The position numbers were made by a program. Positions 9,001 to 12,000 of a DNA stretch of 64,000 bases are shown here, one piece after another. Every line of letters starts with the position of its first letter. Within the stretch, counting starts at the first letter, position 1. The stretch lies in NCBI RefSeq assembly GCF_031277915.1, contig NZ_JAITLL010000078.1; one strand, 5' to 3'. This stretch comes from Acinetobacter sp. Its GTDB lineage: Bacteria > Pseudomonadota > Gammaproteobacteria > Pseudomonadales > Moraxellaceae.

Positions 9001-12000
9001 CACTCGATTTTGGTCCATATGGTTTTATGGAACGTTTTCGTCCCAACTGGATTAACAACCATTCCGACTACCAAGGACGATACACCTATCAAAACCAACC
9101 GAGTATTGCGCATTGGAATTTATGGACTTGGTTAAATAATCTAGTTCCACTTGCCAAACCTGAACAGAAAGAGCAATTCAAAGAAGAGTTGGCTGCTTGT
9201 TTAGAAGAATTTGAACCTACCTTTATTGAGCATTACACCACAGGCTTATGTCAAAAAATGGGTCTCCCCCATTTCCATAAAGACAGTACTGAGTGCGGCT
9301 TAAGCTTTTTGCGTATTTTGCAAACCGAACAACTTGATTACACACAAAGTTTTATCCGTCTTCAAAATAAAGAATATAAAGCGCTACGTGATGACTGCCT
9401 CGATATTCGACAGTTTGATGAGTTCCTTCGCCAATATGAAAATATTCGTGAACATCAAGATACAGATGAACTTGATACAAACATGCAACAAGCAAATCCA
9501 GTTTATATTTTACGTAATCATATGGCGCAACGTGCGATTGAAGCAGCAGAGCGAGATGATTTGAGTGAGGTAGACCGTTTGTTTAAGCTACTTAATCACC
9601 CTTATACCAGACAACCTGATTTAGAAAAATCTGAAGATTTAGGCCCATTACCAAGTGATGTACCAGATGTCGCAGTAAGCTGTTCTTCTTAATTATTGAA
9701 ATATTTAACCTCTCTTGAGCAGCTCAAGTTATAACTCAAGAGAGTGTTTTAACTTCAAAGAATAATATATGAAAATTAGACCTATCATTATTTGTACACT
9801 TCTATTCATTCCACTCGGAATTGCTTTTTATAAGTATGAAAAATATTTACCTACTTTTATACCTTCTCATGAAGCACTAACAAGTAATGAGATATCCGAT
9901 TTTATAAAGACAAAACCTGTAACCTCAATTGAAGTGTTTAAAAATCAACGCATCCTTCTACTCAAAAGTAATCAGGAAGTAATTCGTCGATACCCTATTC
10001 GCTTAGGCTTTAATCCTGAAGGACATAAACACTTTGAAAATGACGGTAAAACACCAGAAGGAATTTATTCTATAGATTGGCGCAATCCACAAAGTGCGTT
10101 TTATAAATCATTGCATATTTCCTATCCCAATACACAAGATGTTGCTTATGCCAAACAACATCAACAGCCGACTGGTGGAGATATCATGATTCATGGATCA
10201 GTTCCGAAGTCCTTTTTATCTATACCTTTTAGTTCAATTTATATGCCACACAAAGATTGGACTTTAGGCTGTATCGCGGTTAGAAGTGTAGATATAGATG
10301 AAATATGGCTATTAGTGCCTAATCACACCAAGATTATAATTTATCCATAACTCTTTAAAACTATCCACATTTTCTGTGGATAACATTGTGGTTATCCACA
10401 GAATAACTTTTATTAACAGCTTATTCTTCTGGATATTCGAAGCGATAACCGACGCCATAAACAGCTTGAATCCATTCATGACGGTTACCAGTTTCAGCCG
10501 CTTCACTAATTTTTCGGCGCAAGTTTTTGATATGGCTGTCAATAACTCGGTCGGCAACATCAAAGCTGTCTGGATTGATATGGTCTAATAATTGCGCGCG
10601 TGAATAGACCTGTCCCACATGCTCTAAAAATAACTCAAGTAGGCGAAATTCGGTTGGTGTTAAACTCAAAGATTTTTGTTGATACCAAATTCTTTGTTGT
10701 GCTTTATCAATTCGAAAAGAGTCATTTTGTTCAGGTTCGGCCTTTCGTTCTAGACGACGTAAAACTGCCTGCACCCGTGCAACTAGCTCTTTTGGGCTAA
10801 ATGGCTTACATACATAATCGTCTGCCCCCATATTTAGGCCTAAAACACGGTCAATTTCCTCAGTACGTGCAGTTACCATAATAATCGGTAAATCTGACTG
10901 TTCACGGACCTTACGACAAATTGTTAAGCCATCCATTCTTGGAACCATCAAGTCCAGAATCATTAAATTAGGTTTACGTTGTTGAAAGCTTGTATAAGCA
11001 TCTTGCCCATCATGAAACATACTTACTTCGAAACCAGCAGCTTCAAGATAATCACGCACCAGATGTGCTAACTCAACCTCATCCTCAACCAACATTACAT
11101 GTTTCATGGGCCATTTTTCCTTTTATTTAACTCTGCTTTTTAAAGGTCAGTACACAACGTAAACCACCCAATGGCGAGTGTTCAAAACTGAGTGTACCAC
11201 CAAGCGCTTGCGCAATTTTACAAGATAAAGCTAAGCCTAGTCCTGTTCCACCTGTACTACGCGTGCGCGAATCATCTACACGATAAAAACGTTCGCCTAA
11301 ACGTGATAACTGTTGATCGTTTAAACCAAAGGGGCTGTCATCGACATATAAAGTCCAATCCTGAAGCGTTTGACTCGTATGAATATGAATTTTCCCACCT
11401 GTTTCGGTATAACGAATGCTATTACCAATCAAATTAACAATAATTTGTTTAAATCTATCACGGTCTAACAATAAAGGAACACCATCACCTTCGACCTCAA
11501 TTTCTAGTCCGGCTTGTTCTAGTTTAGGCCTAAAGTTTTCTACCTCTTGTAGTACAACATCCCATGGATTGACCGAACTTAAATAACATTTAAGTTGCTG
11601 AGCATCAGCTTGTGCCAAGTCGGCAAGATCTTGTGTGAGTTTCTTTAGACTCGAAACTTGTCGCATCATGGCATCAAGATGTTCAGGTGTTGCCTTTCGA
11701 ATACCATCTTGCATCGCTTCAATTTGCGCCTGCAATACAGCCAGCGGCGTTTTCAACTCATGAGAAGTATCTGCTACCCATTGACGTCGTGATTCTTCAT
11801 GTTGATGTAAAATTTCGGCTAAATGGTTCAATTGAGTTGATAAATCGCCTAGTTCATCATTTCGTTTAGTAACCACTTGATGTTGATAATTACCTTTAGT
11901 TAACTCATTTGTTGCATTTAATAGACGCTGAATTGGCTTTTTAAAATAAGTTGCCATTAAAAGTGCTGCAACTAAACTTGAGAGTAATGTTAAAGCATAA

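Follow-up and report, generated by a model that had tools for sequence, protein, structure and literature searches.

A candidate DARS1-type DnaA-reactivating site, probably one of three, in an Acinetobacter genome

Introduction

To our knowledge, sites on DNA that reactivate DnaA by releasing its ADP (DnaA-reactivating sequences, DARS) have been proven only in Escherichia coli. One of them, DARS1, lies in the bioD-uvrB intergenic region (Fujimitsu 2009, cited after PMC6868365 and PMC11724364); it needs no activator, and in E. coli the activity of a DARS core is raised by strong boxes I and II (PMC11724364). The other, DARS2, lies in the rppH/ygdT-mutH region; its boxes I and II are weak, and it depends on IHF and Fis sites in a unit of 256 bp (PMC11724364). 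Species close to E. coli retain its regulatory region (PMC4245941, PMC8682772). The ATP-hydrolysis site datA consists in its minimal form of DnaA boxes 2, 3, 7 and 4 with a single IHF site (PMC11724364). Here we describe a cluster of DnaA boxes in Acinetobacter sp. (assembly GCF_031277915.1), located in a 64,000-nucleotide stretch of contig NZ_JAITLL010000078.1 (hereafter "the window"), whose core has the layout of the E. coli DARS sites. We call this element class A.

According to reviews, DARS1- and DARS2-like sequences are conserved in many proteobacterial species (PMC10380432), and DARS-like sequences have been reported in V. cholerae (PMC6090056). In the literature that we searched, the examples mentioned by name were limited to E. 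coli relatives, Vibrio and Shewanella among them, and we found no description of how the ATP/ADP state of DnaA is controlled in Acinetobacter. The initial annotation of the window, which proposed class A as a DnaA-recycling site, knew of none characterised in this genus. Our search likewise found no paper on such a site, with the proviso that the species list of the original 2009 DARS paper may include the genus.

Results and Discussion

Three DnaA boxes make up the class A core at window positions 10361-10395: CTATCCACA-ttttc-TGTGGATAA-cat-TGTGGTTAT (Table 1). Read from the MG1655 sequence, the E. coli cores are TTATCCACT-attcc-TGTGGATAA-cca-TGTGTATTA for DARS1 and TTATTCACC-ttttc-TGTGGATAG-agt-TGTGAAGAA for DARS2. 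The DARS1 core that the initial annotation had quoted is exact against MG1655, and the +,-,- orientation with spacers of 5 and 3 bp, which it had noted for class A and DARS1, is common to all three cores; both class A spacers were read in the window as described. The likeness to DARS1 extends beyond the opposed orientation of box I and the two spacer lengths: in both sites box II is perfect, box I carries one mismatch and box III carries two, and both are intergenic, lie away from oriC and have no conserved activator sites in their flanks. The two sites differ in that they share no homology outside the boxes and that the genes around class A do not include uvrB. Class A also contains a fourth, perfect box that overlaps box III and forms a 13-bp inverted repeat with box II, and it fills a 70-bp gap between the stop codons of two converging genes. 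As the initial annotation had stated, the site lies between two convergent stop codons; they are the TAA that ends the transpeptidase gene and the stop of the response regulator gene. Measured in ten complete relatives, the distance of class A from dnaA is 572-729 kb, on either side, which corresponds to 15-22% of the chromosome, whereas DARS1 lies about 33% from oriC.

The comparison with DARS2 shows the same core layout and a 5-bp spacer, TTTTC, identical to that of class A. Unlike DARS2, class A has strong boxes and no conserved flanks, and DARS2-type IHF and Fis sites at a fixed distance were not found in these flanks, which carry 0.35-0.38 bits of information per column. Boxes II and III of class A, a direct pair 3 bp apart, also resemble the double DnaA boxes of the E. 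coli regulon (Stringer, Fitzgerald and Wade 2024, PMC11317965). A direct pair of this type is the preferred in vivo binding unit of DnaA in E. coli (PMC11317965). In contrast to class A, the double boxes of the regulon have no third box placed head-to-head, and most of them are found at promoters (PMC11317965).

We calibrated the shared layout on the whole MG1655 chromosome (4.64 Mb) with the pattern TTATCCACA-N5-TGTGGATAA-N3-TRTG, allowing up to three mismatches. The only matches were DARS1 and DARS2, and the reversed control gave none. The layout thus picks out the functional sites in the one organism with proven function.

In the Acinetobacter genome, a scan of all contigs found the three-box layout at exactly three loci, class A and two sister sites (classes B and C). 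Head-to-head pairs of boxes, with up to one mismatch allowed in each box, occur three times at a spacing of 5 bp and at most once at any other spacing between 0 and 15 bp. Over its full length the window shows no excess of DnaA boxes (24 with up to one mismatch versus 20 expected), but four such boxes stand within 60 bp at the class A site. Among 400 simulated 64-kb windows with the dinucleotide make-up of the real one, none had more than two boxes per 60 bp, and the three-box layout never appeared. The 3.48-Mb assembly contains 38 perfect boxes, and class A is the second densest cluster. On the basis of the simulation and the reversed-pattern controls, we rejected a chance origin of the element.

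After a DNA search of 81 Acinetobacter genomes we scanned 30 fetched loci and found the three-box core in 23 of them. A class A-specific pattern, the compound of box II, a 3-nt spacer and the overlapping boxes III and IV, matched in 70 of 161 Acinetobacter species (about 43%) with no match for the control, and some species carry two copies 1-2 kb apart. Information content was computed over 25 distinct copies, in the choice of which box II was required to be perfect (Table 1); a looser scan without this requirement also found box II perfect in all tri-box matches. The 5/3-bp spacing is invariant across the 25 copies. The sequence of the 5-bp spacer is fairly conserved (ttttc, atttc, aattc, atatc), while the 3-nt spacer is fixed in length and free in sequence, with at least 13 different trinucleotides among the orthologues. 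The five bases past box III, which complete box IV, are identical in 25 of 25 copies. Box I occurs as TTATCCACA, CTATCCACA, TTACCCACA or TTATACACA; since the last two variants are uncompensated in box II, it is the boxes that are conserved and not the hairpin.

The surroundings of the element change more freely. It persists where selO or other DNA stands in for the transpeptidase gene, and also where it stands about 1.3 kb away from the regulator gene. Loci without the element carry no boxes whatever, rather than boxes at altered spacing. The six DnaA-box-like 9-mers that the initial annotation listed between 10341 and 10418 are all present, exact to the base, at the coordinates and on the strands given there. 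As parts of a single element, only four of them hold up: boxes I to IV are conserved, whereas the outer two are not. The 9-mer TTATCCATA, which covers the final codons of the transpeptidase gene, is retained only beside that gene and is absent where selO or other DNA flanks the site, and the sequence of TTATTAACA varies freely among orthologues. The conserved element therefore spans window positions 10361-10406, about 46 bp. This footprint, with boxes and spacings kept and flanking sequence drifting, fits a protein-binding site. It is also the opposite of a hairpin that is kept while its boxes are lost, which the initial annotation had named as the outcome that would speak against a DnaA site.

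The sister sites have the same core layout with other details. In class B, four boxes form a symmetric 2+2 arrangement between diverging genes for a lytic transglycosylase and a ttcA-like protein; the site is conserved across Acinetobacter, flanks included. Class C is palindromic: its head-to-head pair TTATCCGCA-aatct-TGTGGATAA has a TATGGAAA-type box III on either outer side, 3 bp away. This site lies between converging genes for a universal stress protein and an O-methyltransferase and is likewise conserved across Acinetobacter. In the two relatives whose three sites share a contig, class B is located about 270 kb beyond class A on the same arm, and class C 1.06-1.34 Mb from dnaA on the other arm. 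Classes B and C have in common the motif GAT[C/G]ATTTTTTAACCA (TGATC in some species) about 52 nt past box III, and no similar motif was found in the flanks of class A. The Fis consensus can be written as the 15-mer GnnYAnnnnnTRnnC. The class B motif fits this form, and in the class C version position 4 is not a Y; the consensus is also printed with four central n (PMC11724364). This Fis-consensus-like motif past box III suggests that classes B and C have a DARS2-like flank.

Beyond this genome, we found the layout conserved in Moraxellaceae, as the initial annotation had proposed to check: 145 of 151 genomes and 20 of 21 genera have a match with up to two mismatches, and the control has none. 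In the other Moraxellaceae genera, class B-like sequences are the commonest matches. Class A is limited to part of Acinetobacter; its box I and spacer recur identically in the matches of one other genus. With the calibrated pattern, again at up to two mismatches, 250 of 301 gammaproteobacterial genomes (224 of 271 genera) have a match, as does a single genome for the control. Phylum-wide, the pattern matched in 125 of 241 genomes, with the matches clustered in certain families and lacking in others.

Taken together with the E. coli comparison, these observations make it rather likely that class A is a DARS1-type, activator-independent site for the release of ADP from DnaA, and probably one of three DnaA-recharging sites in this genome. 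That DnaA binds the element is very likely; that binding leads to genuine reactivation is a less secure prediction, made by analogy, which we nevertheless favour. Strong boxes I and II together with the unconserved flanks make the DARS1 mode the better fit, and class A should act without IHF or Fis. The initial annotation had also preferred DARS1 over DARS2 or datA, and the absence of a conserved flanking regulatory region agrees with this preference. Its remark that no IHF consensus was seen nearby calls for one qualification: one exact match, TATCAAAAACTTG, is located at 10520-10532 on the minus strand, 120 bp from box IV. This match lies inside the response regulator gene and encodes IKNL of the stretch HIKNLRRK, which we take to be typical of OmpR-family regulators, and we therefore give it little weight. 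The 64-kb window contains four IHF-consensus matches versus 8 expected.

If the E. coli mechanism applies, DnaA would first bind the perfect box II. The bound molecule would recruit two more, one placed head-to-head at box I and the other head-to-tail at box III. Where the AAA+ domains of the head-to-head pair touch, through Gln208 (E. coli numbering), ADP would be loosened; apo-DnaA would then leave, rebind ATP and thereby raise the initiation-competent pool. In E. coli, DARS-promoted release of ADP depends on Q208, and the protomer on box III is contacted head-to-tail with the support of L290 (PMC6868365, PMC11724364). Because dnaA is absent from this assembly, we checked these residues in the DnaA of a congener, which is 48% identical to the E. 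coli protein and keeps Q208, V211, L214, Q215, K243 and L290, with F239 replaced by L. The genome encodes Hda (C4:52196-52861; 195.9 bits, just above the curated cut-off of 194.8), so that ADP-DnaA should be produced, and it also encodes Fis and IHF homologues.

Several points weigh against this assignment. Box IV overlaps box III by 4 bp, a feature without counterpart in the E. coli DARS, and may compete with the DARS-type trimer. The presence of class A in only about 43% of Acinetobacter species indicates that the genus can do without it. The assembly, which comprises 83 contigs and is 92% complete, lacks the dnaA gene. The E. coli calibration rests on only two proven sites, and for the Acinetobacter sites DnaA binding, ADP release and a role in initiation are all predictions.

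An alternative that we consider unlikely, though ahead of the others, is that class A lowers the amount of free or active DnaA instead of recharging it, either as a titration sink or as a datA-like site of ATP hydrolysis. Two perfect and two near-perfect boxes at one site would suit such a role, box pairs 2-3 bp apart are a preferred in vivo target of DnaA in E. coli whatever their function (PMC11317965), and the same genome has other conserved DnaA-box arrays. However, mere binding does not require the head-to-head arrangement with its 5-bp spacer, and yet this geometry is strictly kept; moreover, the layout marks only the two reactivating sites in E. coli. As for datA, whose minimal form combines boxes 2, 3, 7 and 4 with an IHF site (PMC11724364), we did not find its composition at class A: the unit of datA measures about 200 bp and the Acinetobacter element about 46 bp, and a conserved IHF site was not found in the flanks.

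The fourth box raises the question of a second DnaA complex at the same site. Box IV stands back-to-back with box II at a spacing of 8 bp, and its overlap with box III means that both cannot be fully occupied. Such back-to-back pairs (TGTGGATAA-N8-TTATCCACA, a 26-bp palindrome) occur seven times in this genome with up to one mismatch overall, and eight times with one mismatch per box, where we estimate that about 0.1 would be expected. With up to one mismatch in the whole pattern, we found 2-7 pairs per Acinetobacter genome sampled, whereas of 20 other Moraxellaceae genera only 2 had a match; the reversed control matched in one genome. The sequence of the N8 spacer is not conserved. One further pair in the window (58169-58194) lies inside a 634-aa open reading frame. 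The overlap of box IV and the recurrence of N8 pairs in Acinetobacter suggest that class A may combine a DARS core with a type of box pair special to this genus. Given a perfect box IV across box III, DnaA could then form either the I-II-III trimer that releases ADP or the II/IV pair, in mutual exclusion. We regard such a compound switch as quite improbable. If true, it would be a built-in brake on reactivation that depends on DnaA concentration or nucleotide state, whereas E. coli brakes DARS2 by way of Fis and additional low-affinity boxes.

It is more doubtful still that the element serves mainly as a terminator or a DnaA-dependent roadblock between the converging genes, with its DARS likeness secondary. 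The 13-bp inverted repeat that the initial annotation described from the two perfect boxes does pair, positions 10372-10384 with 10391-10403, and folds with -19.3 kcal/mol on the plus strand and -21.2 on the minus strand (z about -5). A perfect stem of this stability (-19 to -21 kcal/mol), 21 nt and 17 nt past the two stop codons and followed by a partial T-run on the plus strand, is what a terminator would offer. On the other hand, the T-run is displaced on the minus strand and is not conserved in orthologues, no change in the stem is compensated, and the element survives replacement of either neighbouring gene. Furthermore, classes B and C have the three-box layout without this hairpin, and class B lies between diverging genes. 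As a secondary function, the inverted repeat may also help to stop both converging transcripts. The idea that some other dimeric regulator reads the 26-bp palindrome, a largely Acinetobacter-special feature found seven times in this genome, 2-7 times per Acinetobacter genome sampled and in 2 of 20 other Moraxellaceae genera, is the most improbable of all: each half-site matches a DnaA box exactly, the N8 spacers lack conservation, and box I and the 5/3 spacing, superfluous for a palindrome reader, are also conserved at class A.

Three other identities for class A were rejected. A structured RNA is disfavoured by the absence of an Rfam match at the site and of compensatory changes among orthologues. 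We take the replication origin of Acinetobacter to lie near dnaA, and the distance between class A and dnaA in the complete relatives supports the view of the initial annotation that the site is not oriC; an AT-rich repeat was not found in the 70-bp gap. Short matches on plasmid contigs in the genus-wide DNA search, which might have pointed to a mobile or plasmid-borne element, turned out to belong to something different. They stem from a conserved segment, some 220 bp long, in which a perfect head-to-head pair, TTATCCACA-ttttt-TGTGGATAA, is not accompanied by a clear box III. Of the 194 plasmid records that contain this segment, 193 are from Acinetobacter and one is from Klebsiella, and some plasmids have it twice; in the single plasmid that we examined (NZ_CP039153.1, 3020-3240) it lies upstream of a relE/parE toxin-antitoxin pair.

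Two further arrays of DnaA boxes deserve mention. The densest cluster of the assembly (C30:8751-8819; locus L035:2751-2819) lies between recB and the start of recD and consists of six boxes in the same orientation, spaced by 3 bp. About half of the sampled Acinetobacter species conserve it, and in complete relatives it is 375-400 kb away from dnaA. We dropped oriC as an explanation in view of its location between recB and recD, and consider it a candidate for a datA-like site or for control of recD by DnaA. A second array (C3:6507-6563) contains three 24-bp tandem repeats, each opening with a DnaA box (TTATCCATACGGTTATAAACAAAG twice, then TTATCCACA); many Acinetobacter conserve this array, and its distance from dnaA in complete relatives is about 680-730 kb. 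Elsewhere in the window, Rfam matches comprise a cobalamin riboswitch (2662-2868, plus strand, 80.7 bits) and a tRNA gene (43210-43293, minus strand).

Table 1. Class A element, its neighbours and related sites. Positions refer to the window unless preceded by a contig (C) or locus (L) handle; information content was calculated over the 25 class A copies.
Feature	Position	Strand	Bits per column	Sequence or remark
Outer box-like 9-mer, left	10341..10349	+		TTATCCATA; over the transpeptidase stop codon, probably outside the element
Left flank			0.38	
DnaA box I	10361..10369	+	1.72	CTATCCACA; 1 mismatch; head-to-head with box II
5-bp spacer	10370..10374		1.66	ttttc; between boxes I and II
DnaA box II	10375..10383	-	2.00	TGTGGATAA; perfect consensus; information content perfect by selection of copies
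3-bp spacer	10384..10386		0.60	cat; between boxes II and III
DnaA box III	10387..10395	-	1.89	TGTGGTTAT; 2 mismatches; head-to-tail with box II
DnaA box IV	10392..10400	+	2.00 (rest of box IV)	TTATCCACA; perfect consensus
Tail, six bases after box IV	10401..10406		1.32	GAATAA in the window, GGATAA in most species; conserved
Right flank			0.35	
Inverted repeat	10372..10403			13 bp, perfect, 6-nt loop; boxes II and IV plus neighbouring bases
Outer box-like 9-mer, right	10410..10418	+		TTATTAACA; outside the element, not conserved in orthologues
YkuD-type L,D-transpeptidase gene	9769..10350	+		left neighbour; ends in TAA
OmpR-type response regulator gene	10421..11107	-		right neighbour
Histidine kinase gene	11127-12794			partner of the OmpR-type regulator; next after the regulator gene
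Class B core (genome scan)	C14:31565	-		TTTTCCACA-aaacc-TGTGGATAA-aat-TGTGGATTT
Class B, full	C14:31555-31609 (L033:2556-2610)	-		TTTTCCACA-g-TTTTCCACA-aaacc-TGTGGATAA-aat-TGTGGATTT; four boxes, symmetric 2+2
Class C core (genome scan)	C78:29069	+		TTATCCGCA-aatct-TGTGGATAA-cta-TATGGAAAA
Class C, full	C78:29057-29103 (L034:2558-2604)			palindromic
Flanking motif, class B	L033 ~2496-2514	-		GAT[C/G]ATTTTTTAACCA
Flanking motif, class C	L034 ~2657-2672			GAT[C/G]ATTTTTTAACCA
Further N8 pairs	58169-58194; C2:9243, C23:19309, C38:183, C38:60441, C80:11525, C83:23808			TGTGGATAA-N8-TTATCCACA type

Conclusions

Class A and its two sister sites provide three short and precisely defined targets in Acinetobacter. 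The pattern calibrated on E. coli is a simple finder of candidate sites in other genomes, and the three sites let one ask whether DNA-driven recharging of DnaA is a general device of Gammaproteobacteria.

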